Assembly (NCBI GenBank): GCA_963720675.1 | Contig: CAVRGH010000003.1 | Coordinates: forward strand, 175,503 to 239,502 | Direction: 5' to 3' | DNA from: an uncultured Acidimicrobiia bacterium | GTDB taxonomy: Bacteria; Actinomycetota; Acidimicrobiia; IMCC26256; PALSA-555 | Length of the DNA: 64,000 nucleotides | Shown here: piece by piece, positions 2,447 through 62,717 of the stretch | Layout: the number at the start of each line of letters is the position of its first letter | Position numbering within the stretch: position 1 is the stretch's first letter | The notes under the pieces: generated by a model | What the model was told of the DNA's origin: nothing | Seen by the model: the letters and a program-made list of their open reading frames with translations, nothing else | Database searches by the model: none | Made by a program: the position numbers and the translations under genes

Positions 2447-2470
2447 GATCGTTGACATCCGAGTGGTCGG

Positions 2471-3393
2471 ATGGACGCCATGACCGCCCTGCCGCTCCCC
2501 GAGATCGACGAGCGGCCCAGTCGCTTCGGGCTCGTCACCGGGCTCACGTTCGTCGCCGCGATCGTGTTCGCCCTGCTCACCCGCGGGGCGCGGCGCTCGG
2601 GATCGCCCTGCTCTTCCTGCTCTTCGTGCCGCTCGAGAAGCTGTTCGCGCTCCGCAAGCAGCGGGTCTTCCGCACGGGTCTGGTCACCGACCTCACCCAC
2701 ATCCTGGTGAACAACTTCTTCTCGACCGTCGGTGCGATCGCGCTCGTGGTGCTGTTCGCGTTGCCCTTCATCTGGGTGCGCGGCTTCGACCTGGTCGGGT
2801 ACGTGCCGACCGAGGCGGCGATCGTGCTCGGCTTCGCGATCGTGTTCGTCGGGCAGTACTGGGGCCACCGTCTCACGCACTCGGTCCCGTTCCTGTGGCG
2901 CTTCCACGCGGTGCACCACAGCATCGAGCAGATGGACTGGGTCGCCTCCGGGCGGCTGCACCCGCTCGACCAGGCGTTCACGCAGGCGTTCGCGATCCTG
3001 CCGCTCTTCCTGCTGGGCTACGGCAACGGGGTGTTCGCCGGGGTCGCGGTGTTCGTCACGCTGCTCGCCCTCTTCCAGCACGCGAACGTGCGCCTGCGCT
3101 TCCCCGTCCTGCGCTGGGTGATCAACACCCCCGAGTGGCACCACTGGCACCACGCGATCGACGACGAGGCGCGCGACAAGAACTTCGGGCTGCCCCTGCT
3201 CGACAAGGTGTTCGGCACCGCATACCTGCCGAAGGGCAAGCGCCCGATCGGCTTCGGCACCCTCGACCCGGTGCCACAGGACTCGTACCTGCGGCACCTC
3301 GCGTACCCGTTCACGAAGGCGGCGCGCCGTGGTGTCGCTGCGTCACCGGTCCCGGCGGGCGATCAGGATCGTAAGCGGGCTGCCGGGGGATGA
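2471..3393 (+). pseudogene. fatty acid hydroxylase / sterol desaturase superfamily membrane protein, apparent 1-nt frame disruption near 2585
   Basis: The His boxes HRLTH, HAVHH and HHWHH lie in the frame of ORF 1750..3393. That frame has no ATG, GTG or TTG before GTG 2626. ORF 2471..2710, in another frame, supplies an ATG and a TM helix (GLVTGLTFVAAIVFALL). It reads on into AALGIALLFLLFVPLEKLF if one G is added to the G4 run at 2585-2588. The alternative is an intact shorter CDS at 2626..3393. Confidence 0.7.
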
Positions 3394-10675: not shown

Positions 10676-12311
10676 TCAGGCGGCGTCGCGCCGGCCGTCC
10701 GCGATGCGGCGGGCGACGGACGCGGTCGGTTCGTGGCCGGTCAGCGCGATCAGGAAGTCCTCGCGCTCGAGCGCGTACAGGGTGACGTCGGTGCGGGCCT
10801 TCACGGTCGCCGTGCGCGGCACGTCGTGCAGCAGCGCGATCTCGCCGAACCCTTCACCCCGACCGAGCACCGCGACGCGCTCGTCGTCCCTCAGCACCTC
10901 GACCTCCCCCGTCGGCGATCGCGAAGTACTGGTCGCCCCGGTCGCCTGCCCGCACGACGACGGTTCCGGCCGCGACCTCCCGGGACGTGAGCGCCCCCGC
11001 CAACGCCTCGAGCGACGAGGTCGGCAGCGGCTCGAAGATCGGCAACCGCCGCAGGAGCGCGAGCTCGACGATCGGCACCTGGGCGGCCTCGTCGACGGCC
11101 AGCACCGCACCGAACCGAACCGCCGCGAGCGCCGCCACCAACACGCCGACGCCGATCAGCGCGGCTTCGGGGCCGCCGAGCGCCACGAGCACGGGGACGA
11201 CGACCGCACCCAGCGCGAGCCCCAACATCGCGAGACCCTCGGCGATGCCGAACACTCGCGACACGACGTGTGGTGGTGACGAGCGCAGCAAGAGGGTGCG
11301 CGCACCGAGGTCGAGCACCGCTCGTCCGCCGCCGGCGATCACGAGGAGGGCAAACGCTGCCGCGGTGCTCGGCGCCGCGCCGAGCACGATCAGGGCCGCG
11401 CCCCAGGTGAGCGCGCCACCCACGACCGCGGGAGCGAGGCGGCGACCGCCGACGAGCAGGACGGCGGCGGAGATCCCGATGAGGCCGCCTGCCCCGAAGG
11501 CGGCTTCGAGGTAGCCCGCGCCACTCGGACCGAGGTCCAGCAGGTCGAGCGCGAGCACCACCGCGAGGAGGTCGATCGCACCCCACGCGACGTGCTCCAA
11601 CCCGAGGAACCCCACCATGAGGCGCGCCGGCTGGTGGTCGAGGAGCGTTCGGAATCCCTCGGTCACCTCACGTGCGCCGCGCGCGGCCAGGTCGTCGGCC
11701 GCGGTCCGGCGCGGGTCGGGGTCGCTCGCCCGCAACGGTGCGATCGCGGCGGCCCCCAGCGCGAGCAGCACTGCCATGGTGGCGAACACCGTCCCGACGT
11801 CGGCGACCGCGAGGAGCAGCCCGGCGATCGCCGGCGCGATCAACACCGACGAGTTCTCGATCCACCCCGAGCTCACCATCGCGGCCATGAGCTCGCGTGG
11901 TGATCGCGACATCGCGGGAGTCAGCACGGCCTGGGTCGGGCGGCTCACGGTGAACGCCATGGTCGCGATCGCGGCCGAGCCGTACGCAACGAGGTCCGGA
12001 CCCCCGAGGAGCAGCACCGCGGCCGTCGTCGCGAGCGCGAGCGCCTGCGCGGTGTAGCCCGCCGTCTGCACCTTCGTCGGCGCGGCCCGGTCGGCGAGCG
12101 TGCCGAGGAAGGGCGCGACGAGCGCCGCCGGGAGGAGCTGGACGACGGAGACGATCCCCGCCTCCGTCGCGCCGCCGCGCTCGAACGCGAACACGAGCAT
12201 CGCGATCCAGACGGCGTGCTCGGCGAGGTTGAACGCCGCGAACCCGCCCTGGGCGCGCCGCAGGTCGGGATTGCGCAGCACGGCGCGCAGGGTCTCCCGC
12301 GAGCGGCTCAT
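10676..12311 (-). pseudogene. MFS transporter fused to a C-terminal cyclic-nucleotide-binding domain, 1-nt frame disruption in the C5 run at 10906-10910
   Basis: ORF 10854..12311 encodes an MFS with about 12 TM helices and ends ...[52 protein letters not shown] 10676..11110 continues in another frame with [37 protein letters not shown]..., which carries the cNMP-binding FGE and RTA signatures. Removing one C joins the two frames. Confidence 0.8.
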
Positions 12312-12323
12312 CCCGATCGGTGC

Positions 12324-12668
12324 CTACGACCGATGCTTGCGGCGATATCGCACTGCAGCGATCGCTCCTGCGATCACCGCGCCCGACGCGAGGACGATCG
12401 CTCCGTTCCGCAGGAGGATCTTGGTGCGGTCGCTGCCGTCGTCCGCGCCTTCCGTGGCTTCGACGTCGTCGAGCGAGATCTCGCGGTGGCCGCCGGTCTC
12501 GTCAGGAAACGAGAGGACGGCCTCTCCGAACGCGGGCTCGCGCTTCAGGTCCTCGAGGTGCTTCGGGTACAGGTCGGCGCCGAGACCCTCGGGGACCTCG
12601 CCGAGCACGGGGTCGTCGTCCTGCTCGTCGTCTCGCTCGTGGTCGCGCTCGTCCGGTGCGTCACCCAT
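12324..12668 (-). CDS. hypothetical acidic protein with C-terminal TM anchor
   Basis: 114-aa ORF with a very acidic N-terminal half and the C-terminal helix GAIVLASGAVIAGAIAAV. No family was recognised. Confidence 0.5.
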   Translation of the reverse strand: MGDAPDERDHERDDEQDDDPVLGEVPEGLGADLYPKHLEDLKREPAFGEAVLSFPDETGGHREISLDDVEATEGADDGSDRTKILLRNGAIVLASGAVIAGAIAAVRYRRKHRS

Positions 12669-12692
12669 GACGCCAGCATGACGTACCAGCGC

Positions 12693-13244
12693 TCACAGCG
12701 CCTCCCAGTGCCAGGCTTCCTCGTTCGCCCCGCCCGGTCGCACCGAGTCGGGTTGGAAGAACCCGAACCGCGCCGCGTTCGCGACGAGCCACTGGTAGCC
12801 CGGCGACGTGAAGGTGAGCTCACCGAGCCGGTCCTCGAAGTCGACCGCATGGCCCCACCCGTGCTTGCTCGTCCCCGGTTGCGCGGCATTCCCGCACTTG
12901 TCGATGGAGCAGTAGTAGGTCCGCCACCAGACCTGCATGTCGTAGGTGCGGTAGCAGGACTCGATGCGCGGGGGAGGTGCGACGCCCGGTGGGAGGTAGC
13001 TGCTCGTCTCCGGCGCCAGCCCGACGCCTGCGGCCTTCGCGGCGACGAGCAGCGCGCCGAGCTGGTCCGCGAGCTCCGCTGCGACCTGGCACTGCGGGGT
13101 GACCGCGACGGTGGAGTCGGCGGGGAAGCGTCCGTTGGCTCCGGGCGCGGGCGGCGACGGTGCGACGTGCGCACATCCGGCCGCGATCGCGCCCAGGACG
13201 AGTGCGCCTGCCGCGGTCCGGATCAGCCCGATTCCCAGTGCCAC
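12693..13244 (-). CDS. peptidase M15 (VanY-like D-Ala-D-Ala carboxypeptidase family) lipoprotein
   Basis: This is the C-terminal part of ORF 12693..13979. It has a lipobox (LVLGAIAAGC), SKHGWGHAVDF (S-x-H-x-x-G-x-A-x-D) and EAWHWE. The GTG start at 13244 is tentative. Confidence 0.75.
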   Translation of the reverse strand: MALGIGLIRTAAGALVLGAIAAGCAHVAPSPPAPGANGRFPADSTVAVTPQCQVAAELADQLGALLVAAKAAGVGLAPETSSYLPPGVAPPPRIESCYRTYDMQVWWRTYYCSIDKCGNAAQPGTSKHGWGHAVDFEDRLGELTFTSPGYQWLVANAARFGFFQPDSVRPGGANEEAWHWEAL

Positions 13245-18550: not shown

Positions 18551-18655
18551 CGGGCGATGGTGAGGTCGACGTGGCGACCGCGAGCGAGCCGCAGGTCTAC
18601 CGCTGCGTCGCCGCGACGTAGTGCCGCTGGTGATGTGCCACAGGGGGGACGACGC

Positions 18656-19721
18656 ATGACGCCGACGACGATGCGGGCCTGGCGGGTGCACGAGTACGGC
18701 GAGCCGACCGAGGTCTTGCAGCTCGAGGAGATCCCGATCCCCGAGCCGGGCCCGGGCGAGGTGCGGGTCCGCGTCCTCGGCTTCGCGTTCAACATCAACG
18801 ACCTCGAGCGGATCAACGGCGGCAACATGATGGTGGCGCCCGAGCTGCCGTACGCGCCGGGCATGGAGTCGATGGGCATCGTCGATGCCTGTGGCCCCGG
18901 CGCCGAGGGGTGGGAAGGCAAGCGCGTCGTCGCCATCACGCTCCAGGCCTACGGCGGTTTCGCCGAGTACGCGATCTGTTCGGCGGTCTCGACGTTCGAG
19001 ATGCCCGAAGCGATCCCGCTGCCCGACGCGGCGGCGCTGTTCTTCCCGTTCCACCTCGCGTGGCTCGGGCTCTTCGACCGGGCCGACCTGCAGGCCGGGG
19101 AGACCGTGCTCATCCACGCCGCCGCCGGCGGCGCCGGGTCTGCGGCGATCCAGCTCGCGGTCGAGCAGGGTGCGCACGTCATCGCCACGGTGGGGTCCGA
19201 CGAGAAGATGCAGCTCTGCCGGGACCTCGGCGCGGCAGACGGTCGTCAACTATCGGGACACGCCCGAGTTCGCTCCGATCTGCCTCGAGGTGACCGGCGG
19301 CAAGGGCGTCGACGTCGTGTACGACAACGTCGGCGATGCGGTGATGGAGGAGTCGTTCAAGGCCCTCGGGTACAACGGGCGGTACCTCATGATGGGCTTC
19401 GCCTCCGACAAGACGGTCGCCGACGCGAAGTCGATCGTGCCGCGTCGGATCGCGTTGGGGAACTTCAAGCTCTGCGGTGTGATGCTCTCGTACGCCGACG
19501 CCGAGCGGCAGGCGATGATGAAGAACCTGCTCGGGTGGAACCTGCCGTCGCACGACCTCGGTGCGGAGATCACGCGCCGCGTCGTCGAGATGGTGCAGGC
19601 CGGACGGGTGAAGGCAGTCGTCGGGCGCGTCGTGGAGTTCGAGGACGTCCCCGAGGCGATCACCGCGATGGCCAACCGGGAGACGGTGGGCCGGGTCGTG
19701 GTGAAGCTCTGGGACGACTGA
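18656..19721 (+). pseudogene. NADPH:quinone oxidoreductase-type MDR dehydrogenase, 1-nt frame disruption near 19241
   Basis: ATG 18656 follows a GGGGGA Shine-Dalgarno and gives MTPTTMRAWRVHEYGEP...IHAAAGGAGSAAIQLA...LCRDLGAAD. The read continues in the frame of ORF 18885..19721 as VVNYRDTPEF...GRVVVKLWDD once one G is removed from gacGgtc. Confidence 0.8.
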
Positions 19722-30990: not shown

Positions 30991-33900
30991 TCATGACGGG
31001 CACACCGCGAACAGCCGTTGCGGCTCGGAGATCCCCTTGAGCTGGAACAGCCCGCGGTCCTCGAAGCGGGACCCGGTCGATCCCGTTCCCAACACCTGGA
31101 CGACTTCGGACACCAGGGTCTCGCCGGGCGGGGCCGCCGCACAGGTCCTCGCTGCGAGGTTGACGGCGCTGCCGTGCACGCCCGTGCCCGCGCGGATCAC
31201 CTCTCCCGCGTGGATCCCGACGTGGAGCTGGAGTCCGACCGAGGAGGCGTGCGCGTGCGCGGCGTCCGCGGCATCGATCGACGCGCGCACCGACGAGAAC
31301 ACGGCGAGCAGCCCGTCACCGGGGCGGATGCCCTCGATCGTGGAGCCGCCGAGGTCCTCGATCGCCGTGCGCACGCGGGCGTCGAGGGCCTGCTGGGTCT
31401 GGAGGTACGCGAGATCACCGAGCTGCTCCGTGAGCCGGGTGGAGTCGACGACGTCGGTGAAGAGGAGGATGGCGGTGCTGCGCTCCGGGAGGCCCGGGGG
31501 CGCAGCCGGGGGCGTCGGCGCCGGCGGGAGCTCGTACCCGCACGTCGTGGCGACGTCGAGCGCTTCGTGCGCCAGGGAGGGCATCGACAGCTCGTCGAAG
31601 GTGCGCGCCGCGGCGCGGCGAGCTCGAGTGCCCGCGCCTCGTCGTGTTCGACGACCAGGCGGGCGGCCCCCAGCTGGGCGCGAGCCAGCTCCGGACGCGC
31701 GCCGATCGCGCGTGCGGTCGCGATCGCTTCGTCGTAGAGGGTCGCCGCAGTCTGGAGGTGTCCACTGCGGGCAGCGAGCTCGGCGCGCAACCGGGTGACG
31801 AGCGTCACCAGGCCCTCGGTGAGCACCATCCCGCCGTCGGCCGCATCCTCGAGCCCGCGTCCGAGCGCGTCGGCGTCGACGGGCAGCCCGCTGGCGTGCG
31901 CGAGGTCGAGGAGGGCGGCGACCCGCTGGACGGTGCCGAGCGCGACGGGCCAGTGATCGCCGGGTCGCGCCTGCCGCTCGTGCAAGGCATCCTCGACCGC
32001 GGCGACTTTTCCGTCCCCGGCGTCGATCGCCAGATCGATCAGGGTCATGGTGTCGTGGCCGAGGGCGTGGTCGAGCTCGGTCATGGTCGACGCCCAGCTC
32101 TCGAGCGCGGAGCGGGCGCCGATGGAGTCGCACTGGAGCAAGCGAGCCCACGCCAGGCCCGGGAAGAACAACGAGGCGCTCCACGAGTAGGACGAGACGC
32201 GGATCGCGGCCCATGCGGCCTCGGCGTGGTCCTCGGCCGCGGCGAGGTCACCCCGTGCGAGCGCGACGCCGACGCGGGCGGCGAGGGCCAGGCTCTGCTC
32301 GCCCCAGTCGTGGGTCTCCTCGGCCCCGTCCGCCGCGTCCCGTGCGTATCGGTCCGCCTCGTCGAGCTCACCCATCCAGAGCAGGGTCAGCGCGAGCCGG
32401 GGGAGCGGCAGGTTGGCGAGCCACGGGTCGCCGGCCGCACTCGCCGCGCGCGCGGCCTCGCGGAGACACGCGAGCGCACCGTGGAGGTCGAGGTCGAGCC
32501 ACCGGGCTTGGGCTCGGGCCATGTGGGCGCGCGCCTCGGCCTCAGGGTCCGCGTCGACGGCCACGATCGCGAGCGCCCGCTCGGCGTACGCCTCGGCGGC
32601 GCGCGTGCGACCCTGGGGCCACGACGCTTCCGCGAGCTGGGACAGCGCGCGCGCAGCGAGCACCGGGTCGATCGCCTCGAGCTCCGGGACCAGTGCGTCC
32701 AGGGGCTCGAGCTCGACCGGTTGCCCGAACGTGCCCCAGGAGACCTCGGCATGGAGGAGCCCTGCCAACGCGGCGCGCTTCGCCTCGGACGTCGCCGGCG
32801 CGGCGGAACCCGTCGGCGGCCCGGGCGAAGCGCTCCCGGCCCGGGCCAGGGTCCATGTTGCGGCAGTGCGCGTCTCCGGCTCGGCGGTGCAGGTCGGCGA
32901 TCACCTCGGGCGCAGCACCCGCGCGCGCTTCGGCGGTCGCAGCGGCGTCGAAGTCGCGCGCCGCCTCACCCCACGCCGCGAGCTGCCACGCGCGCTCGCC
33001 ACCGAGCACGCACGCCCGGGCCACCTCCGCGGGCGGCGCCTCGGCGCCGGACTGCGCATAGTGGAAGGCGACGGCCAGCGACTGCTCCCCGCGCTCCGCC
33101 GCGGACTCGGCCAGCACGCGGGCAGCCGCGAGGTGGATGCCCTCGCGTTCGGCGTCCGACAGCACGCCGAGGAGCACTCGGGCGAACACCGGATGCGCGA
33201 ACACGTACCCGTCGCCTTCCCGGGTCACGACGTGCGCGGTCACCGCGGCCCGCAGGGCTCGATCGGCCGCTTCGGGATCGCAGTTGCACAGGCGCGCGAG
33301 CACGGTGGTTCGGAACGGCTCACCGATCACCGCGGCCGTCGCGAGGACGCGGCGATCCGCGTCGTCGAGCCGGTCGATGCGGGCTCGAGCTGCGTCGCTC
33401 AGATCGTGGGGGAGCGGGAGGTCGAGGAGCAGATCGGTCGCGACCAGCTGGCCACCCTCGTCCCGCAGGGCGCCGCGCGAGAGGTACTCGACCGCCGCCT
33501 CGACCAGCAGTGGGTTCCCGTGCGTCGTCCGCACCACGAGATCGACGAGCTGCCGGGACGGGTGCTCGAGGCCGAGTGAGCGCAGGAGCTCCGCGGTCTC
33601 CCGTTCGCCCAGGCCACGAACCGCGAGGGCGTGCACGATCTCCTCCCGCTCGAGCCGGGCGAGGTGTCGGCCGAGCGGCGTGTCGGGCTCGGTCCGATGG
33701 GTCGCCGCGAGGAGGATGGGCACCTCGGCCCGCACCGCGGCATCCGCCATCTCCTGGCCGACGTGCACGAACAGATCGGCCGAGGGCCCGTCGGCCCATT
33801 GGAGATCGTCGACGGTCACCAGGAGCGGCCGGCGGCGGGCCAACGCGGAGGCCGCGCGGGCGACCGAGCGGAACAACCAGAGCTGCTCCCGGGCCGCGGC

Positions 33901-34290
33901 CGCGCCGCCGGCCGCGGGGTCGGGCACGCTGCGGTCGAGCGAGCTCGCGATCACCGCCGCGGCCTCGGCGAGCGTGGGCTCCGCGCGTGCCGCGTCGAGG
34001 AGCCGGGGGAACAGGGTGCCCTCGAACGGGTGATAGGGCAGGTCGACGTGCTCCAGGCATCGTCCCGTGAGCACCTCGAAGCCCCGGTCGCTCGCGAGTT
34101 GCTGGAGGCGGCGGAGCAGTCGCGTCTTGCCGATTCCGGCGTCGCCCGAGATGAGCACGACGCGCGGCAAGCCGCGCCGGGCCGCGCCGAGGGCACGCTC
34201 GAGGGTCGCGAGCTCGGGCGCCCGCGCAACGAACGGCCGTGCGTCGAGAGGTCGGGCTCGGCGGATCGGCTCGGTGTTCAGGCTCTCCAT
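30991..34290 (-). pseudogene. STAND (AAA_16-type) NTPase - TPR-like helical repeats - C-terminal class III nucleotidyl cyclase, 2 frame disruptions (~32770, ~31615)
   Basis: ORF 32542..34290 has Walker A VLISGDAGIGKTRLL and Walker B LLVTVDDLQWAD. ORF 31197..32768 is a long Ala/Leu-rich helical repeat region. ORF 30991..32214 ends in the cyclase domain, LLFTDVVDSTRL...PGDGLLAVF...HGSAVNLAAR...FQLKGI. The three frames abut with no other coding candidate. Confidence 0.8.
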
Positions 34291-34425: not shown

Positions 34426-35271
34426 TCAGGAGTCCGCCGCGACGGTCTCGCGCATCCAGTCCTCGACCTCGTCTTCGTCGGTGTCATCGCCCAACGGGCC
34501 GGGCGAGAACCAACCGAGCAGGAACAGGCCCACGGTCGGGACCAGGAGGAGCGGGATCCACACCGAGCCGCTCGGGCTGACGAGCAGGAGCAGCGAGAGG
34601 AAGAGGGTGAGCGTCACGCCGACGCCGACCCCGACGAGCGCGAACCGCAGGCCTCGCCGCCAGCGGTTGCGCGGCAGCTTGCGGCGCCCGACCGCGATCC
34701 AGATCACCGTGATGCTCGCCACGGTCACGACGGCGACGATGAGCGCGAAGAGGCTCACCAGCGACGTGGCCGATCCGCGCACGTCGACCGTGAAGTTCCG
34801 CGACGCCAGCTCGGCGCGGTCGGGATCGATGAGGCGAATGGCGGCGGGGAGGAGCCCGTTCGCCTGTTGACCCAGGTCGACGAACTCGACCGGCACGTCG
34901 ACCTTGGTGCGCTCGCCCGGAGCGATCTGGGCGTTGATGGTCACGTCGTAGGCGAGCAGGGTGATCCCGAACGCCTTGCCCCGGATCTGCACCTGACGGA
35001 CGGTGAGCGGGGCGAGGGTCGTGTTCAGCATCGACAGCGACAGCATCGACACCTTGTCGGGGTCGAGCACGATCGGATCGCCGGACGACGAGAGGCCGAG
35101 TCGCTGCCCGTCGAGCGCGGCACTGAACGCGACCGAGGGTCGGGCTGCGGCGCGCGTCGAGGCGGCACCGACCGGCGCGGCCAGGACGAACGCGAGCCCC
35201 GCGAGCGCACCGAGCACGACGCAGCACGTGGCCGCGACGAGACGCGAGCGACGCGGGTGTCGGTTGGCCAT
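34426..35271 (-). CDS. membrane protein: signal peptide + ~150-aa extracytoplasmic domain + 3-4 TM helices + acidic tail (paralog of the kinase-linked sensor module)
   Basis: 281 aa. The segment IRLIDPDRAELASRNFTVDVRGSA followed by TM helices aligns with LRFLDRNKDELRTAEFRLDADRAA followed by TM helices in the upstream gene. Confidence 0.75.
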   Translation of the reverse strand: MANRHPRRSRLVAATCCVVLGALAGLAFVLAAPVGAASTRAAARPSVAFSAALDGQRLGLSSSGDPIVLDPDKVSMLSLSMLNTTLAPLTVRQVQIRGKAFGITLLAYDVTINAQIAPGERTKVDVPVEFVDLGQQANGLLPAAIRLIDPDRAELASRNFTVDVRGSATSLVSLFALIVAVVTVASITVIWIAVGRRKLPRNRWRRGLRFALVGVGVGVTLTLFLSLLLLVSPSGSVWIPLLLVPTVGLFLLGWFSPGPLGDDTDEDEVEDWMRETVAADS

Positions 35272-35274
35272 GGT

Positions 35275-37715
35275 TCAGTCCTCCGAGTCCGAGTCGGAGG
35301 TTTCGTCGTCCGGCTCGTCGTCGGGTGCCGGTGCTTTGCCGCCGGAGATGCGGGTTTCGCGGGCTTCGGGGGACTCGGGTGCTTTGCCGCCGGAGATGCG
35401 GGTTTCGCGGGCTTCGGGGGACTCGGGTGCTTTGCCGCCGGAGATGCGGGTTTCGCGGGCTTCGGGGGACTCGGGTGCTTTGCCGCCGGAGATGCGGGTT
35501 TCGCGGGCTTCGGGGGACTCGGGTGCTTTGCCGCCGGAGATGCGGGTTCGTGGGCGGCGGCGGTGGCGTCGGGGTCTTGCCGCCGGAGATGCGGGTTTCG
35601 TGGGCGGCGGCGGTGGCGTCGGGTGTCTTGCCGCCGGAGATGCGGGTTTCGTGGGCGGCGGCGGTGGCGTCGGGTGTCTTGCCGCCGGAGATGCGGGTTT
35701 CGTGGGCGGCGGCGGTGGCGTCGGGTGTCTTGCCGCCGGAGATGCGGGTCTCGTGCGCGGCAGGCGACCCGGCATCGGCGGCGTGGACGCGCGCCGGTGC
35801 AGCGGGGACGCCGGCGACGACAGGCTCGAGATCTTCGGGCGCGGCGCGACGCGCTTGCGCGAGCGCGAGACGGCGCCGACGGCCGGAGATGAGCACGGCG
35901 CGCGCGATCGCGAGGAACGCGCCGACACCGAGCAGGACCCCGGCGAGCATCGTCGGCCAGGTCGGCTGGGGGCCTCCGAGCGCCCAGACGACGTCGACGA
36001 TCGCGGCACCCGCGACGCCGCCGAGGATGCCCATGCCGATGAACGCCGAGGTGCGCTGACGGCCGCGGCGCAGCGGCAAGGTGAGCGACCAGCCGTAGGT
36101 GATGATGAACGCGAGCACGAGGAGACCGATGAGCCCGTTCGCCGCGAGCACCGCCGCCCGGTCCGCGTCGAGGCGGAACTCCGCGGTCCGCAGCTCGTCC
36201 TTGTTGCGGTCGAGGAATCGGAGCTCACCCGTGGCCTTGCCGGCCAGGAGGATCCGGACTCGCTGCGCATCGATGTGCGCCCGGAACCCGCCGCTGCCGT
36301 CGGGCGTCAGCACGGCCGACCGCGACGGCGGCAGCTGCAGACCGAGGGCCGAGAAGCCGAGTCGCACGTACCGGGCGTCCTGGGTGCCTGCGGGGAGGTT
36401 CTGCAGTCGTACCGGGACGTCCTCCGAGAGGTTGACGTCGACCGTCCGGTCGGTGCTGATGTCGACGCCGGCGACACGCACGGTTCCCGAGCGGAGCCCG
36501 TTCGCCGCCGGCTCGGCGTCTCCGATCCCGAGGACGCTCACCAGGGCGAGCAGCACGACCAGGAGGCTCGCGAGCGCGAACGCGAGGCGCGGCGGCTTCG
36601 GCGGCTTGATGAGGTCGTCGACGCGGACGAGGTCTTCGGGCCGTAGCTCGTCGATGCGCACCCCGCCCCGGGGCACCGCCGTCGCGCGCATCCGCAGCGG
36701 CGGGTCCAGCGGGACCGGTGCGCCCTGGCCGGCGATCATCGTCTCGCGGCCCGTCGCGCTCGGCGCGCCGGCGCCGGCCGACGCCGGCCTGCGTGGCCGG
36801 TCCGGCGGCGATGGTGATCGGTCCCGGTGCCACGAGGGTGATGTCGGCCTGGCCCAGCCAGCCGGTACCGAACGACTCGGTGGCGGCCTCGGCGAGCGCG
36901 ATGCCGAACGCTTCGGCGCTCGCGTACCGATCGTCGGGGTCGCGCACGACGGCGCGCATCGTCACCTCGGCGAGCGGGATCGGCACGTTCGGGGCGACGT
37001 CGAACAGCTGCTGGGGCTCCTCGTGGACGCGACGTTCCAGCACCTCGAACGATCCGCCGTCGAGCGAGAAGGGGAGCGACCCGGACAGGAGCTCGTAGAG
37101 CACCGTGCCGGTCGCGTACACGTCGGCGGGCGGACCGCACGAGCGACCTTCGGCCTGCTCGGGCGCCATGTATGCGGGAGTGCCGATGACCGCGCCATCG
37201 ACCGTGGTGACGGTCTCCTCGCCGCCGAAGACCTGGGCGATGCCGAAGTCGGTGATCTTGAGCGTGTGGTCGGCCGCGAACATGAGGTTCTCGGGCTTCA
37301 CGTCACGGTGGAGCACGCCCCGCTCGTGCGCGAACTGGAGACCGGCGCAGGTGGCGAGCACCGCGGTGCACGCGGTCGCCATGGTGATCCCCTCACCGGT
37401 GAAGCGGTCCCAGAGCGTGCCGCCCGGGAGCGCTTCCATCACGAGCAGACAGAGGCCCTCGCGCTCGACGTAGTCGTACACCGGCACGATGTGCGGGTGC
37501 GCGAGGGCAGCGAGCGTGCGCGCCTCCTGGCCGAAGCGGTGGCGCACGTCTTCGTCGGCGGCGAACGCGGCCGGCAGCTGCTTGATGGCGACGTCACGCT
37601 CGAGCTGGCGGTGATGCCCGGCCAGCACCACGCCCATCGCGCCGCGCCCGAGCTCGCCGCCGACCTCGTAGCTCGGAAGCGCGTTCTGAACTGGCGTCAG
37701 GGTGACCTGGACCAT
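35275..37715 (-). pseudogene. Hanks-type Ser/Thr protein kinase apparently continuous with a 4-TM sensor and a repeat-rich C-terminal tail (frame disruptions ~36775, ~35574, ~35547)
   Basis: The kinase starts at ATG 37715. It has GELGRGAMGVV, VAIKQL, HRDVKPENL, ITDFGIA and YMAPEQ. After ...ITIAAGPATQAG its frame degenerates into 170 Arg-rich codons that overlap ORF 34484..36739. That ORF encodes linker, TM (LAFALASLLVVLLALVSVLGI), an extracytoplasmic domain, 3 TM helices and the repeats. The repeats finish in the frame of ORF 35275..36270 (...ISGGKAPAPDDEPDDETSDSDSED), whose stop lies 4 nt before the next gene's start. Confidence 0.75.
35331..35760 (-). repeat. coding tandem repeats: ~4.5 x 48 nt followed by ~4 x 51 nt, encoding 9 copies of ETRISGGK(T/A)P
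   Basis: The 48-nt unit is gtgctttgccgccggagatgcgggtttcgcgggcttcgggggactcgg (starts at 35331, 35379, 35427, 35475, 35523). The 51-nt unit is gtcttgccgccggagatgcgggtttcgtgggcggcggcggtggcgtcgggt. The hybrid junction unit lacks one T (35547-48) and one base at ~35574. Confidence 0.9.
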
Positions 37716-37913: not shown

Positions 37914-39272
37914 GTGCGCCAGCCGAAGTGCAAGCCGCTGGTCATCGCCGTGCGGGACGTGGTCGACATCGGACGCGACTGCGACGGGCTGCTCCTGTCG
38001 GACCCCGAGGTATCGCGTCGCCACGTCTCCCTGACCCTCGACGGCGATGCCGTGGTGCTCGAGGATCTCGGGAGCACCAACGGAACCATGCTCAACGGAA
38101 CGACGATCACCGGCCCCGTGCACCTCGACGAGGGAGACGTCGCGCTCCTCGGCCGAACCGAGCTGCAGCTCTTGGCGGTCACCGGCCGCGGCCGCCCGGT
38201 GCGCAAGCCGATGCCCATCAGCGGGGCGGTCACGGGCGTCGTGACCGACCCCCGCAGCTCGCCGGCGGCCGGGGCCGTCGTGCGGGGGAAGGCCGACACC
38301 TCCGGCGCCCGCATGACCTCGATCGACGCCATGGCCGACGCGGTCGACGAGGAGCAGGCCAAGGTCGCCAAGCTCGCCGCCGGCGGCGGCACGATCACGA
38401 TCGTGTTCTCCGACATCGAGGCGTCCACCACGATGGCGATGTCGTTGGGTGACACCAAGTGGTTCGAGGTGCTCGGCGAGCACAACGAGATCATCCGCCG
38501 GAACCTCAAGGCCCACGGGGGGACCGAGATCAAGTCCCAGGGCGACGGCTTCATGCTCACGTTCCCCGGCGCCCGGGCCGCCATGCTCGCCATGATCGAC
38601 ATCCAGCGCGACCTGGCCGAGCGGGCCGCAGGTGGCACCGACGCCCCGATCCGTATCCGCATCGGGATGCACACCGGTGAGGCCATCGTCGACGCCGAGG
38701 GTGACCTCTTCGGCAAGCACATCATCATGGCGGCGCGGATCGGGGCGCTGGCCGAAGGCGGCCAGATCCTGGCGTCGTCGATCACCAAGGAGATCACGTC
38801 CAGCCGCGGCGACCTGGCGTTCGGTCCGGCGCAGGAGGTGACCCTCAAGGGCATCGAGGGCACCTACCAGGTGTACGAGGTCCTCTGGACCGATCCCGCC
38901 ACGACCGACGATCGGGACGAGCACGCCGGCCGAGTGATCCCGGGCCCGGTCGGGGCCGGATCCGGAGGTCGAGCGGACCGCATGGAACCGAGGCTCCGTA
39001 TGGAGTACCTTCTGACCACGGAGCGTGGTCGAGCCGTCGTGCACTTGGGCGCACGGCGGCAGGGACGCTCCCGAAACAGCAAGGGGTGCTGGGAGCTTGC
39101 GGTTGTCAGGGCGGCGCGCGACGCGCATGGGTGCAGCGGCATTTGCCGCCATGCTTGCTTGCCTCTCGTCGGCCGCGCTCGCGGTCGCCGCGCCCCTCAC
39201 CGACCCGTCGACGCCCGTCGGCGCGCAGGTCGGCACGCTCGACGTCACCCTCTCCGTCTCCGGGACGCCTGA
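37914..39272 (+). CDS. FHA domain - class III adenylate/guanylate cyclase fusion protein (true 3' end probably near 38.9 kb)
   Basis: The start is GTG 37914. The FHA domain reads IGRDCDGLLLSDPEVSRRHVSLTL...LEDLGSTNGTMLNG. The cyclase domain reads IVFSDIEASTT...EIKSQGDGFMLTF...RIGMHTGEAIV...LFGKHIIMAARI...LKGIEGTYQVYEVLW. Downstream of about 38900 the ORF is Arg-rich and overlaps the next gene's signal peptide. Confidence 0.85.
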   Translation: MRQPKCKPLVIAVRDVVDIGRDCDGLLLSDPEVSRRHVSLTLDGDAVVLEDLGSTNGTMLNGTTITGPVHLDEGDVALLGRTELQLLAVTGRGRPVRKPMPISGAVTGVVTDPRSSPAAGAVVRGKADTSGARMTSIDAMADAVDEEQAKVAKLAAGGGTITIVFSDIEASTTMAMSLGDTKWFEVLGEHNEIIRRNLKAHGGTEIKSQGDGFMLTFPGARAAMLAMIDIQRDLAERAAGGTDAPIRIRIGMHTGEAIVDAEGDLFGKHIIMAARIGALAEGGQILASSITKEITSSRGDLAFGPAQEVTLKGIEGTYQVYEVLWTDPATTDDRDEHAGRVIPGPVGAGSGGRADRMEPRLRMEYLLTTERGRAVVHLGARRQGRSRNSKGCWELAVVRAARDAHGCSGICRHACLPLVGRARGRRAPHRPVDARRRAGRHARRHPLRLRDA

Positions 39273-58875: not shown

Positions 58876-60707
58876 CCTCGTCCACCGCCCTCGGGGGTGC
58901 CGGGCTGGGAGTCGACACCGGCGGCACGTTCACCGACCTGGTCGCCGACGACGGCACCACCGCGAAAGTCTCGTCGACCCCGGGCGACCCCGGTGCCGCG
59001 GTCCGCGCGGCCATCGAGCAGCGGGGTGACGCCTCGCCCGCGTCCCGCCCTGCGCTGCTCGCCTACGGGACGACGGTTGCCACCAACGCCCTCCTCGAGC
59101 GCCGAGGCGGCCGCATCGCGCTGGTCACGACGCAGGGCTTCGCGGACGTCATCGAGATCGCCCGGCAGGTGCGCCCGTCGCTGTACGACGCCCACGCCGA
59201 CCGTCCGGTGCCGCTCGTACCGCGCGACCTGCGCATCGAGGTCGGCGGACGACTCGACGCAGCGGGTCACGAGCTGGCCCCGGTCGTCATCGGTGACCTC
59301 GACCAGGTGCCCGACGACGTCGACGCGGTGGCAGTGTGCCTGCTGCACGCGGACCTGAACCCGGCCCACGAGCGGGCCGTCGCCGCAGCCCTCATCGCCC
59401 GGGGCATCGACGTGTCGTGCTCGTCCGAGGTGTCGCCGGAGATGCGCGAGTACGAGCGCACGGTGACGACAGCGATGAACGCGATGTTGCGCCCGGTGTG
59501 CCGCCGCCACCTGCGGGACGTCGCGACCATCGCCGACGAGGTGCTGGTGATGACCTCCGCGGGGGGCCTGGTGCCGGCGGCCGACGCCGCCGAGCAGCCG
59601 GTGACGATCCTGCTCTCCGGACCCGCCGGCGGGGCCCGGGCCGCGGCCGCCGTCGCGGCCGCGTGCGGGTACCCGGACGCGGTCGGGTTCGACATGGGCG
59701 GGACGAGCACCGACGTGGTGCTCGTGCGCGGCGGGGTGCCCGAGCCGGCCGCCGAGCGCGTCGTCGCCGGCTTGCCCGTGCGCACCCCGTCGCTCGACGT
59801 GCACACCATCGGCGCCGGCGGCGGTTCGCTCGCGCGGCTCGATGCCGGCGGCGCACTCGTGGTCGGGCCGCGGAGCGCCGGCGCGGTGCCGGGACCGGCG
59901 TGCTATGGGCGGGGCGGCGTCGAGCCGACCGTCACCGACGCTGATCTCGTCCTCGGGCGCATCGATCCCGCGGCGACGTTCCCGGACCTCGGTCGCCTCG
60001 ACCCGACCGCGGCGCGCGGCGCCCTCGATCGCGCCGGGGTGGACGCAGCGGGCGTGGTCGCGGTGGTCGACGCGGCGATGGAGCAGGCAGTCCGCCGCGT
60101 TTCGGTGGAGCGGGGGGTCGACCCCCGCACGCTCGCACTGGTCGCGTTCGGGGGCGCCGGTCCGCTGCACGCGTGCGCGATCGCCGATGCGTTGGGCATG
60201 CCCACCGTGCTGGTGCCGCCCCGGGCCGGGGTCCTCTCGGCCGTCGGCATCCTGGCCGCACCCCGGGCCCGGGAGCTGGTGCGCACCTGGGCCACCCCGG
60301 ACGATCACCACGGCGTCACCCCGGCCCTCGAGGTGCTCGGCGACGAGGCCCGGGCCCTGGTCGGGCCCGAAGCCCGAGTCAGCACCTACCTCGACTGCCG
60401 CTACCCGGGACAGAGCCACGATCTGCGCGTCGCCCGGGTCGAGGACTTCCACGCGGCGCACGAGCGCCGCAACGGCTTCGCGCGCCGGGACGAGCCCGTC
60501 GAGGTCGTGGCGTTGCGGGCCCGGGCCGTGCGCGACGGTCCGCTCGAGGTCGTCGACCTCCCCGTGCCCCGGACCGCGCACAAGAGAGTGGATGGGCCGG
60601 CGGTGCTTGCGGAGCCCGACTGCACGATCTTCGTCGGCGCGGGCTGGCAGGCCGAGGTCGGCGCCCTGGGTGCGTGGGTCCTGCGTCGGACCGGGGTGGG
60701 TCGATGA
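58872..60707 (+). CDS. hyuA: hydantoinase/oxoprolinase family protein, A subunit type
   Basis: GTG 58872 overlaps the upstream stop (GTGA). The sequence reads GLGVDTGGTFTDLV...GTTVATNALLERRG...LVTTQGFADVIEI.... Confidence 0.85.
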   Translation: MTSSTALGGAGLGVDTGGTFTDLVADDGTTAKVSSTPGDPGAAVRAAIEQRGDASPASRPALLAYGTTVATNALLERRGGRIALVTTQGFADVIEIARQVRPSLYDAHADRPVPLVPRDLRIEVGGRLDAAGHELAPVVIGDLDQVPDDVDAVAVCLLHADLNPAHERAVAAALIARGIDVSCSSEVSPEMREYERTVTTAMNAMLRPVCRRHLRDVATIADEVLVMTSAGGLVPAADAAEQPVTILLSGPAGGARAAAAVAAACGYPDAVGFDMGGTSTDVVLVRGGVPEPAAERVVAGLPVRTPSLDVHTIGAGGGSLARLDAGGALVVGPRSAGAVPGPACYGRGGVEPTVTDADLVLGRIDPAATFPDLGRLDPTAARGALDRAGVDAAGVVAVVDAAMEQAVRRVSVERGVDPRTLALVAFGGAGPLHACAIADALGMPTVLVPPRAGVLSAVGILAAPRARELVRTWATPDDHHGVTPALEVLGDEARALVGPEARVSTYLDCRYPGQSHDLRVARVEDFHAAHERRNGFARRDEPVEVVALRARAVRDGPLEVVDLPVPRTAHKRVDGPAVLAEPDCTIFVGAGWQAEVGALGAWVLRRTGVGR

Positions 60708-62302
60708 CCCTCGACGCCGCCGGACTCCAGGTGCTCGTCGCCCGGTGCACCGGCATCGCCGAGGAGATGGGCGCAGTACTGCGCCGAGCCGCATCGAGCC
60801 CCAACATCAAGGAGCGCGCCGACTGCTCGGCCGCGTGCTTCACCGCGACCGGTGCGTTGCTCGCGCAGGCCGAGCACATCCCGGTGCACCTCGGGTCGAT
60901 GGAGACCGCGGTGCGCGCCGCGATCACCGCCGCCGGTGCCGGCATCGAGCCCGGTGAGCAGATCATCGGGAACGACCCCTTCGCCGGCGGCACGCACCTC
61001 AACGACGTCACGCTGGTCGCGCCCGTGTTCGTGCGCGGCGCGCTCGTGGGCTGGGTCGCGAACCGGGCGCACCACGCCGACCTGGGCGGCACCGCCCCCG
61101 GGTCGATGCCACCCGACGCGCTCGAGATCGACGAGGAGGGTCTGCGCCTCGCGCCGACGCGCCTCACCCGGGACGTCGAGGAGCAGCTGGTCGGCTCGTC
61201 GCGCACGCCCGAGGAGCGGCGCGGCGACCTCGATGCCCAGTGCGGCGCCAACGCGCTCGGCGTCGACCGGCTGGCCACGGTCGTCGCCGGGCTCGGCTCG
61301 ACCGAACCCTTCGACGAGCTCCTCGACTACGGGGAGCGCCGGATGACCGCTGCGCTCGCCGACCTGCCCGACGGCACCTTCGCGTTCGAGGACGTCCTCG
61401 ACTCGGCCGGGCCCCGCCCCGACCAGCAGACGCCAACCCGCGTGGTAGTCGCGGTCACGGTGGACGGAGAGACGGTCACGTTCGACTTCACCGGGACCGA
61501 TGCGCAGCGACCCGGCAACGTGAACGCGGTCGAGGCGGTGACCGTCAGCGCGGTCGCCTTCGCGCTGCGGTACGCGACCGATCCCTCCATCCCCGCGAAC
61601 GGGGGCGCGATGCGCCCCGTGCGGATCATCGTGCCTCCCGGCTCCGTGCTCGGCGCCCTGCCTCCGGTCGCGGTCGGCGCGGGGAACGTCGAGGTGAGCC
61701 AACGAGTCGCCGACGTGTGCCTCGGCGCGCTCGCGGCCGCGGTGCCCGAGCGAGTCGGCGCCGCGGGCCAGGGCACCATGAACAACGTCCTCCTGGGCGG
61801 CCCGGGGCTCGCGATGGGCCGCGCTTGGGTGTACTACGAGACGCTGGGCGGTGGGCAGGGTGGGCGCCCGTGGGCCGGTGGTGCGAGCGGGATGCACACC
61901 GCGATGACCAACACCGCCGACACCCCCGCCGAGGCGCTCGAGCGCGCGTTGCCGGTGCGGGTCCGTCGCTCGACGCTGCGGCGAGGCAGCGGGGGCGCGG
62001 GGCTGCACGCCGGCGGCGAGGGGATCGCGCGCGAGCTCGAGGTGCTCGAGGACACGGTCGTGTCGCTCGTCACCGAGCGGCGCATGTCGAGACCGTGGGG
62101 GCTCGCGGGGGGCGAGCCGGGGGCTTCGGGTGAGAACTGGCTCTTACCCGGCGGCGACGAGTCACGTGCGGTGCGCCTCGGCGACAAGTGCACGGTGCAC
62201 CTCCGGGCCGGCGACGTCCTCCGCGTGCTCACACCGGGCGGAGGCGGCTGGGGCCGGGCCGCGCCCGACCGCACTGGCCGACGGGCCGCGCTCGCTGATT
62301 GA
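60704..62302 (+). CDS. hyuB: hydantoinase B/oxoprolinase family protein
   Basis: ATG 60704 overlaps the hyuA stop (ATGA). The sequence reads SPNIKERADCSAACFT...NDPFAGGTHLNDVTLVAPVF...MTNTADTPAEALE...VLTPGGGGWG. Confidence 0.85.
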   Translation: MTLDAAGLQVLVARCTGIAEEMGAVLRRAASSPNIKERADCSAACFTATGALLAQAEHIPVHLGSMETAVRAAITAAGAGIEPGEQIIGNDPFAGGTHLNDVTLVAPVFVRGALVGWVANRAHHADLGGTAPGSMPPDALEIDEEGLRLAPTRLTRDVEEQLVGSSRTPEERRGDLDAQCGANALGVDRLATVVAGLGSTEPFDELLDYGERRMTAALADLPDGTFAFEDVLDSAGPRPDQQTPTRVVVAVTVDGETVTFDFTGTDAQRPGNVNAVEAVTVSAVAFALRYATDPSIPANGGAMRPVRIIVPPGSVLGALPPVAVGAGNVEVSQRVADVCLGALAAAVPERVGAAGQGTMNNVLLGGPGLAMGRAWVYYETLGGGQGGRPWAGGASGMHTAMTNTADTPAEALERALPVRVRRSTLRRGSGGAGLHAGGEGIARELEVLEDTVVSLVTERRMSRPWGLAGGEPGASGENWLLPGGDESRAVRLGDKCTVHLRAGDVLRVLTPGGGGWGRAAPDRTGRRAALAD

Positions 62303-62354
62303 CTGGGTCGCAGGAGCCCACTGCCGACGGCGTGGGGCGCGCGAGGGAGAAACC

Positions 62355-62717
62355 ATGATCGAGCTCTTGACCGACCTGCCCGACAACGTCGTCGGGCTGT
62401 CCGCCGGCGGTGAGGTGACGGGCGACGACTACGAGAAGGTCCTCATCCCCGCGGTGGAGGCTGCACTCGCGAAGCACGACAAGATCCGGTTGCTCTACGT
62501 GCTCGGCCCCGAGTTCACCGGCTACTCGGGGCGGGCGATGTGGGAGGACGGCAAGGTCGGGATGAGCCACGTCACGCGCTGGGAGCGGGTCGCGGTGGTG
62601 ACCGATCATTCGTGGATGGCGCACGCGGTGAACATCTTCGGCTACCTGATCCCGGGCCAGGTCAAGTCCTTCCCGGTCGCCGAGCGCGACGCCGCGCAGA
62701 CGTGGATCACCGGCTGA
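62355..62717 (+). CDS. STAS/SpoIIAA-like (DUF3478) protein
   Basis: ATG 62355 follows a GAGGGAGA Shine-Dalgarno and gives MIELLTDLPDNVVGLSAGGEVTGDDYEKVLIPAVEAALAKHDKIRLLYVLGPEF.... Confidence 0.7.
   Translation: MIELLTDLPDNVVGLSAGGEVTGDDYEKVLIPAVEAALAKHDKIRLLYVLGPEFTGYSGRAMWEDGKVGMSHVTRWERVAVVTDHSWMAHAVNIFGYLIPGQVKSFPVAERDAAQTWITG

Follow-up and report, generated by a model that had tools for sequence, protein, structure and literature searches.

Tandem array of a threonine motif in the predicted cytoplasmic tail of a receptor-type Hanks kinase encoded next to an FHA-cyclase in an uncultured Acidimicrobiia bacterium

The window analysed here is a stretch of 64,000 nucleotides (nt) from an uncultured Acidimicrobiia bacterium (GenBank assembly GCA_963720675.1, contig CAVRGH010000003.1, positions 175,503 to 239,502). 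On its minus strand it carries a gene for a receptor-type Hanks serine/threonine kinase, the 3′ end of which, as assembled, consists of nine tandem copies of a motif with the core ETRISGGK. The threonine of this motif is invariant, its core matches a threonine motif conserved in the juxtamembrane (JM) linker of the kinase family, and the gene lies divergent to a gene for a protein with an FHA domain and a class III cyclase domain (FHA-cyclase). In the reading that we favour, the array would be an amplified motif for autophosphorylation and FHA docking; we put the chances of this reading at about even.

The repeat array and its reading frame

Nine cores CGCATCTCCGGCGGCAA, spanning 35329–35758 on the minus strand, were counted directly in this assembly. 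They are located at 35746, 35695, 35644, 35593, 35544, 35496, 35448, 35400 and 35352 (plus-strand coordinates), with core-to-core distances of 51, 51, 51, 49, 48, 48, 48 and 48 nt. Tandem Repeats Finder (TRF) assigned to 35330–35766 a period of 48 nt and 8.8 copies with 95% matches and 2% indels; the score of 578 is far over chance. Units 1–4 encode AHETRISGGKTPDATAA in the frame of the open reading frame (ORF) starting at 36739, and units 5–9 are read as (E)ARETRISGGKAP(ESP) in the frame leading to DDEPDDETSDSDSED and the stop codon at 35275–35277. The consensus of the nine copies in the tail is [HR]-E-T-R-I-S-G-G-K-[AT]-P.

Two deletions of 1 nt each were found by comparison with the sibling units: near 35573/4, ACCCC stands in place of ACACCC, and at 35547–35549, within an A homopolymer, AAA has been reduced to AA. 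Because the two deletions sum to a shift of −2, the frame of the array is broken in this assembly; the DNA between them is read in a third frame as PDATAAAHE. The first-pass annotation, made from the sequence of the window, had described nine tandem ETRISGGK units, two unit peptides followed by an acidic end, and two frame-breaking 1-nt deletions in the junction. The core count and TRF confirmed the number of units, the translated frames reproduced the order of the peptides, and both deletions are present.

Three other interpretations of the repeat were rejected. An alternative frame (PASPAAKHPSPPKPAK) was discarded on two grounds: it is ETRISGGK that the intact orthologue encodes, and in the ETRISGGK frame the differences between units sit on third codon positions. 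By eye, ETRISGGKT was considered as a P-loop; the register G-x4-G-K-[ST] is missing, as is the Thr from the KAP units. Phase variation through slippage of the repeat was rejected because each unit has a length divisible by 3, so that a change in copy number preserves the frame.

Architecture of the receptor kinase

The array belongs to a single kinase gene (Table 1). Read through the breaks, the product comprises about 813 amino acids (aa); as assembled, it is distributed over three frames with at least three indels. The orthologues of the kinase are single intact ORFs of 698–792 aa. The order of the parts is kinase domain, JM linker, transmembrane (TM) helix 1, ectodomain, three closely spaced TM helices, the sequence GRRRRL and a tail of about 200 aa.

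The match to PF00069 (163.9 bits against a cut-off of 31.7, E=6.2e-48) places the protein among the Hanks-type kinases. The kinase motifs VAIK (37581–37592), HRDVKPEN (37287–37310) and DFG (37242–37250) were located, as was an activation-loop segment EETVTTV (37200–37220). Residues K45, H136 R137 D138 N143, D156 F157 G158 and A184 P185 E186 are invariant in 26 homologues, and the kinase domain (residues 1 to about 290) is predicted to be active-looking. Against the PASTA kinase model NF033483 the protein scored 254.7 bits, with a cut-off of 450, and only residues 16–279, that is, the kinase domain, were aligned; the Pfam scan gave no PASTA match in the ectodomain. No family in Pfam or NCBIfam covers the tail, the sensor module with its ectodomain, or the membrane protein encoded downstream.

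An AlphaFold2 (AF2) model was made for P0001, the closest intact orthologue, with 26 family members. The TM bundle was modelled as helices 528–552, 558–581 and 589–626. The JM linker (309–361) and the tail (631–792) are without secondary structure, with a predicted local distance difference test (pLDDT) value of about 30. Two threonines, T328 and T348 of P0001, which are at least 90% conserved, lie in this JM linker of predicted disorder. Basic residues are found directly before TM1 (KPPKPPR), after TM2 (RRGRQR, 36053–36070) and after TM4 (GRRRRL, 35867–35884). This positive-inside pattern and the even number of helices place the tail in the cytoplasm, on the side of the kinase domain. Hydropathy, the AF2 model and the basic clusters thus agree with the four TM helices and cytoplasmic tail proposed in the first-pass annotation, and the prediction of a disordered, cytoplasmic tail is supported. 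The tail in this respect resembles kinase segments that dock FHA domains: it is predicted to be cytoplasmic and disordered, and it has conserved threonines inside.

Table 1. Coordinates of the repeat array, the parts of the kinase gene and the neighbouring genes within the window.
Feature	Position	Strand	Remarks
Kinase gene (receptor-type Hanks Ser/Thr kinase)	35275–37715	−	single gene; array is its 3′ end; stop codon 35275–35277
Repeat units 1–3	35606–35758	−	51 nt each; encode AHETRISGGKTPDATAA
Junction units 4 and 5	35509–35605	−	50 nt and 47 nt; one base short each by unit-by-unit DNA comparison
Repeat units 6–8 and partial unit 9	35329–35508	−	units 6–8: 3 × 48 nt, identical DNA, ARETRISGGKAPESPE; unit 9: ARETRISGGKAP
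Acidic C-terminal end	35278–35322	−	DDEPDDETSDSDSED
Protein kinase domain (PF00069)	36924–37670	−	Pfam match
Zone of first frame break	36752–36788	−	from ...AAGPATQ (kinase frame) to GRETMIAG (membrane-part frame); 8 nt shorter than in the intact orthologue L013
JM motif	36710–36751	−	GRETMIAGQGAPVP; family-wide prototype of the tail unit
Second conserved Thr motif	36674–36694	−	RMRATAV; in the JM linker
TM1	36521–36586	−	LAFALASLLVVLLALVSVLGIG; hydropathy 2.93; AF2 helix 379–398 in P0001
Extracytoplasmic β-rich sensor domain	36134–36520	−	about 125 aa; AF2 strands 415–520, pLDDT 85–94
Three-helix TM bundle	35882–36133	−	TM2 36077–36133; TM3 35978–36043; TM4 35882–35950
Divergent FHA-class III cyclase	37914–38930	+	FHA 37965–38150; cyclase 38391–38876
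Downstream membrane protein	34426–35271	−	281 aa; signal/TM, ectodomain, three TM helices

Occurrence of tail arrays among relatives

A search with the sensor module retrieved 34 kinases, all from Acidimicrobiia metagenomes or metagenome-assembled genomes (MAGs). In a tree built on the region up to TM4, the tail-bearing proteins form one clade (11 rows, support 100/100), which is nested in a clade of 19 rows (100/100). The JM motif of the larger clade, G-R-E-T-[MT]-[IV]-[AT]-G-x-G-x-P, is present in all its members except P0010 and P0011. Proteins outside the tail-bearing clade stop about 20 residues past TM4. With the module as query, an exhaustive search by phmmer yielded 190 representatives at 50% clustering, mostly kinases of about 600–670 aa or stand-alone modules, and essentially all of these end no more than about 25 residues past TM4. 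Because the relatives outside the clade end shortly after TM4, the tail was classified as a clade-specific addition.

Arrays of Thr motifs were found in 11 full-length relatives and two fragments. The copy numbers within the clade are 2, 2, 3, 3, 3, 4, 6, 6, 7, 7 and 9, and the units are 11, 15, 16 or 17 aa long (Table 2). A core R-[ED]-T-x-[IVL] is common to the tail units of the clade. The single invariant Thr per unit that the first-pass annotation noted in the window holds there and in every unit of every orthologue. Homologues without any repeat, which the same annotation had named as evidence for a mere low-complexity linker, were not encountered inside the clade, where arrays occur throughout.

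Table 2. Types of tail unit in the tail-bearing clade.
Unit	Length	Copies	Proteins
ARET[TA]V[PA]S[TA]PG	11 aa	3–4	P0003, P0006, P0007, P0008
AR[ED]TTITSTPG	11 aa	6	P0002
AR[EK]T[ST][VL]SSTPG	11 aa	6	P0009
RTSRDTTITGTDPGA	15 aa	2–7	P0005, P0010, P0011
[HR]ETRISGGK...	16/17 aa	7, about 8, 9	P0001, G001, window

The closest orthologue, P0001, is 89% identical over 615 aligned columns, and its tail contains seven ETRISGGK units of 48 nt each, all in frame. When the tail alone was searched against 5.8 billion proteins, the only matches were P0001 and the protein of genome G001, which belongs to the same genus; the ETRISGGK type is therefore genus-restricted. The ends of the tails also differ. Those built of 11-aa units (P0002, P0003, P0006–P0009 and P0038) end polybasic, for example with GKRRRRWRRGK or RRRWRRRRSARS, and the ETRISGGK and RDTTI tails end acidic. 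In the closest orthologue (L013, 3327–3371) the acidic end is replaced by three copies of PDTGS, encoded by a perfect 15-nt tandem repeat.

Constraint on the threonine motif and its juxtamembrane counterpart

Constraint on the units was assessed in the closest intact orthologue, at L013. The eight ETRISGGK columns contain no amino-acid changes and four extra synonymous codons (ACC/ACG, GGC/GGT/GGA, AAG/AAA); in the other eight columns, which form the spacer, the residue is changed in all. Judged from these codons, the ETRISGGK core is under purifying selection. Across the clade, the core is retained in units of 11–17 aa with unrelated spacers.

The core R-[ED]-T-x-[IVL] matches the conserved JM motif of the family, GRETMIAGKGAP (G-R-E-T-x-I-x-G-x-G-A-P). 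A profile of this motif, built from tail-less relatives only, gave its best hit in the window tail at ARETRISGGKAP, with a score of 29.7 against 16.1 ± 3.8 for shuffled sequences (p ~0.003). The JM sequence of a 37%-identical relative reads VARETRITG. In P0010 and P0011, a deletion of 26 residues removes both JM Thr motifs (GRET... and R-x-R-A-T). These two proteins have kept seven and two tail units, respectively, which suggests that tail copies can replace the JM copy.

The FHA-cyclase and the downstream membrane protein

The divergently encoded FHA domain of the first-pass annotation was recovered by Pfam (E=1.6e-14), together with a Guanylate_cyc domain (E=3.4e-16). As assembled, the ORF reaches 39272, about 110 codons past the stop of three orthologues (~38930). 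In each of the five homologous loci examined (L009, L010, L011/L012, L013), one of which is tail-less, the gene beside the kinase in divergent orientation is that of the FHA-cyclase. The residues of the phosphothreonine (pThr) pocket, G20 R21, S34 R35 R36 H37 and S54 T55 N56 G57, are invariant with respect to three orthologues, and the pocket is predicted to be intact. Of 41 related genomes, five contain the kinase-sensor, and exactly these five also have the full-length FHA-cyclase and the 281-aa membrane protein encoded downstream; a sixth genome contains a fragment of the FHA-cyclase at a contig edge. Synteny, alignment and shared phylogenetic profile thus point to a linked, cognate FHA protein with an intact pThr pocket. 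Genes for proteins that bind cyclic nucleotide monophosphates (cNMP) are found near the homologous loci.

The closest solved relative of the FHA domain is FhaA of M. tuberculosis (3po8/2lc1/3oun, E=1e-8). The source genome has four FHA domains and four Hanks kinases in total, with one pair adjacent in the window. Two further FHA domains lie together with a kinase on contig C10, presumably in a cluster of the FhaA/FhaB-PknB type, and the remaining FHA domain is located elsewhere.

The linker of the FHA-cyclase contains at 38304–38327 (+) an invariant GARMTSID (G-x-R-x-T-S-I-D among orthologues), a possible acceptor site of the GarA kind. When the FHA-cyclase was modelled with AF2 from an alignment of four sequences, the mean pLDDT was 40, too poor to place GARMTSID in disorder. 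All four aligned FHA-cyclases read GKHIIMAAR; class III cyclases usually have Asn in the motif G-x-x-x-N-x-A-x-R. As all four share the Ile, it was regarded as a family trait and not as an error.

The downstream membrane protein has the same layout as the sensor part of the kinase; homology between the two was not established by BLASTP (E=0.22) or hhalign (probability 8%, E=0.004). Its acidic tail has a conserved C-terminal EDWMR[ED]TV, with RETV encoded at 34441–34452, and W272 M273 R274 are invariant in seven orthologues. The orthologue in the tail-less clade ends with EDWMRRATL. The motif R-x-T-x-[IV] therefore recurs on all three partners: on the kinase, at the C terminus of the membrane protein and in the linker of the FHA-cyclase.

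Proposed docking function and alternatives

The tail amounts to the conserved JM threonine motif of the family, amplified in tandem. In the docking reading, the active kinase would phosphorylate the invariant Thr of each unit, as occurs in the JM regions or N-terminal extensions of bacterial Hanks kinases, and the pThr units would dock the FHA domain of the divergently encoded FHA-cyclase. Docking would concentrate the cyclase on the activated receptor, where it may be phosphorylated (candidate site GARMTSID) and/or paired with another monomer of the cyclase. Cyclic-nucleotide output would in this way be linked to sensor input, and the copy number, 2–9 in relatives, may tune avidity. The active sites of class III cyclases are located at the dimer interface. 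A bolder version, which we consider quite unlikely, treats the array as a valency device, on which adjacent pThr units recruit at least two FHA-cyclase monomers and drive formation of the catalytic dimer; the activity of the receptor kinase would gate cyclic-nucleotide synthesis and the copy number would set the gain. The R-x-T-x-[IV] sequences on the JM linker, the tail, the C terminus of the membrane protein and the linker of the FHA-cyclase would constitute a private phospho-code of the three-gene module.

Several observations weigh against docking of the FHA-cyclase. The residue at pT+3, the usual determinant of FHA specificity, is S, T, P or A depending on the unit type; it is at +2 that a hydrophobic residue (I/V/L) is conserved. 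Serine at +3, as in ETRIS, is among the classes reported for some FHA domains (PMC5549992). The FHA-cyclase is also found beside kinases that lack a tail, and the wider family of 190 representatives is without tails. As the tail-less relatives keep their FHA-cyclase partner, the array is an add-on, dispensable for the pairing, and could modulate the coupling but not create it. The copies in the window are near-identical in DNA, which points to recent expansion or homogenisation and would be expected of a neutral minisatellite too. Similarity to the JM motif over 12 residues is significant only for the ETRISGGK type, the other types sharing only the five-residue core. Finally, if the frame breaks were real, the array would be unexpressed in this organism.

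Part of this evidence bears on a somewhat unlikely alternative, in which the tail is phosphorylated at multiple sites and acts in cis, or is read by a protein other than the FHA-cyclase. It might serve as a decoy or pseudosubstrate and so give the kinase a threshold or timer, as a charge switch for kinase oligomerisation, or as a contact for the downstream membrane protein or another partner. The motif is a plausible substrate, as it resembles the EETVTTV activation-loop segment of the kinase itself and the JM motif; the co-inherited downstream membrane protein ends in the same R-E-T-V; and the conserved hydrophobic residue stands at +2 and not at +3. There is also a precedent in StkP, which has seven JM phosphothreonines in an organism without FHA domains (PMC12077195). 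The most constant neighbour of the kinase, however, is an FHA protein with an intact pocket and an identical phylogenetic profile, which argues for that protein as the reader. Action in cis or through another reader and FHA docking could both hold.

We regard it as very unlikely that the tail is a neutral minisatellite, that is, a low-complexity disordered spacer generated by slippage or recombination, in which conservation reflects recent common descent of the units. The variation from two to nine copies among close relatives is as expected of such a repeat, units 6–8 of the window are identical in DNA, most of the family has no tail, and the tail is without a Pfam or NCBIfam family. Against this, residue-level constraint was found within the units: R-[ED]-T-x-[IVL] and its invariant Thr persist in units of four lengths and with different spacers, and at L013 the changes in the core are synonymous only, whereas every spacer column is altered in residue. 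The core is, moreover, the older family-wide JM motif, and the lineage with deleted JM motifs has kept its tail units.

Comparison with known systems

Among the closest parallels to the proposed docking of the FHA-cyclase is PknG with GarA/OdhI (M. tuberculosis / C. glutamicum). The autophosphorylated residues T23/T32/T63/T64 in the disordered N-terminal extension of PknG anchor the FHA domain of GarA, which is then phosphorylated on an E-T-T-S motif (PMC8546545). The present kinase likewise has a disordered segment, in which several E-T motifs are conserved, and a dedicated FHA partner. PknG differs in that it is soluble and has N-terminal, poorly conserved sites that are not in tandem; the array described here consists of one motif repeated in tandem at the C terminus, behind a four-TM sensor. 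The partner of PknG is a metabolic regulator, whereas the FHA partner here is a cyclase. The GarA/OdhI switch itself uses an E-T-T-type acceptor (SDEVTVETTSVFRADFL) that is read by an FHA domain; it may be compared with the tail cores RETTV, RDTTI and RETRI and with the invariant R-M-T-S-I in the FHA-cyclase linker. GarA carries motif and FHA domain on a single chain, with intramolecular binding, whereas the array is on the kinase.

PknB and StkP are, like this kinase, of the receptor type with a disordered JM linker; their phosphothreonines are known, and those of the present kinase would be analogous. As summarised in PMC12077195, which cites Roumestand et al. 2011 on this point, the phosphorylated JM domain of PknB binds FhaA (Rv0020c); seven phosphothreonines are given there for the JM domain of StkP. 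The parallel with PknB–FhaA extends to the FHA domain, the closest solved relative of which is that of FhaA, and to the tail unit, which copies the JM motif of its own family. The sites in PknB and StkP are single and non-repeated and lie between the kinase domain and the TM helix, whereas the motif has here been transferred to a further cytoplasmic segment, C-terminal to the last TM helix, and multiplied there, and the ectodomain is not of the PASTA type.

Multivalent pThr–FHA binding through a disordered, multiply phosphorylated segment is found in two further proteins, which are analogous in mechanism only, without any sequence relationship. The SDT repeats of eukaryotic MDC1 form a tandem pThr docking array that is bound by the FHA domain of NBS1. 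The ABC transporter Rv1747 has two FHA domains and a linker with pT152/pT210, and is a substrate of PknF (PMC8339232).

The principle of docking an FHA domain to a disordered, autophosphorylated segment is thus already known. In literature searches, neither tandem arrays of pThr motifs on bacterial kinases nor an FHA-cyclase paired with a kinase was found to have been described. In the few actinobacterial kinases known to recruit FHA partners through such segments, the sites are few, scattered and poorly conserved, and for that reason difficult to study. In the present clade, a single defined JM Thr motif has been amplified two- to ninefold in a second cytoplasmic segment, and the lineage without JM motifs but with tail copies is a built-in control. 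The result is a testable system of one peptide, one FHA domain and one kinase for valency in bacterial pThr–FHA signalling. If the docking proposal is true, a Hanks receptor kinase would be wired directly to cyclic-nucleotide synthesis, for which the literature searches gave no described example; if the motif is unphosphorylated, what is left is a clade-specific repeat with a constraint that lacks an explanation.

Origin of the frame breaks

Error in the assembly of long reads, and not biology, is the probable cause of the frame breaks. The source genome is an 18-contig MAG that is 90% complete. A crude hidden Markov model of GC content by codon position indicated about eight stop-free direct frame switches in the 64-kb window, a pattern that fits an indel-prone long-read MAG. 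By eye, a gene for a transporter with a C-terminal cNMP-binding domain (10678–13232, −) and one for an MDR-type oxidoreductase (18655–19718, +) are split within a domain, and the STAND-TPR-cyclase gene just downstream is split twice. The regions flagged for frame switches were these first two as well as 30991–34290 (−), 2470–3319 (+) and 60685–62698 (+).

If the breaks were real, the kinase gene would either have become a pseudogene recently or have come apart into one gene for the kinase and one for the sensor, and the array would be a relic in this organism; this explanation, which is compatible with the other readings, is unlikely. Three indels in one gene and the broken neighbouring genes are in its favour, but the roughly eight candidate breaks are scattered over unrelated conserved genes in 64 kb. 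The orthologous gene of G001 (7 contigs, 58% "complete") is in three pieces, and its array (8.8 copies, 5% indels) is broken at another unit than that of the window. Orthologues from short-read metagenomes, in contrast, are single ORFs, and the array of P0001 has 0% indels. The sequence 3′ of the break also argues for assembly error: units, acidic end and stop codon, which lies 3 nt before the ATG of the next gene, are all undamaged, and one of the two deletions in the array falls in an A homopolymer.

Additional tails and gene copies

The kinase P0115 (30% identical) shares the sensor module, and its C-terminal tail, which is unrelated to those described above, contains three to four QRTPRP repeats. 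Within the wider family, repeat tails that contain Thr are thus present in a second, independent form. Two different copies of the kinase, one of the ARETTV type with four units and one of the ARETAV type with three, were found in the related MAG G003 (contigs C365 and C30, loci L002 and L006). Each is accompanied by its own downstream membrane-protein gene; the two could be paralogues, or could stem from two strains that were binned together (contamination 6%).

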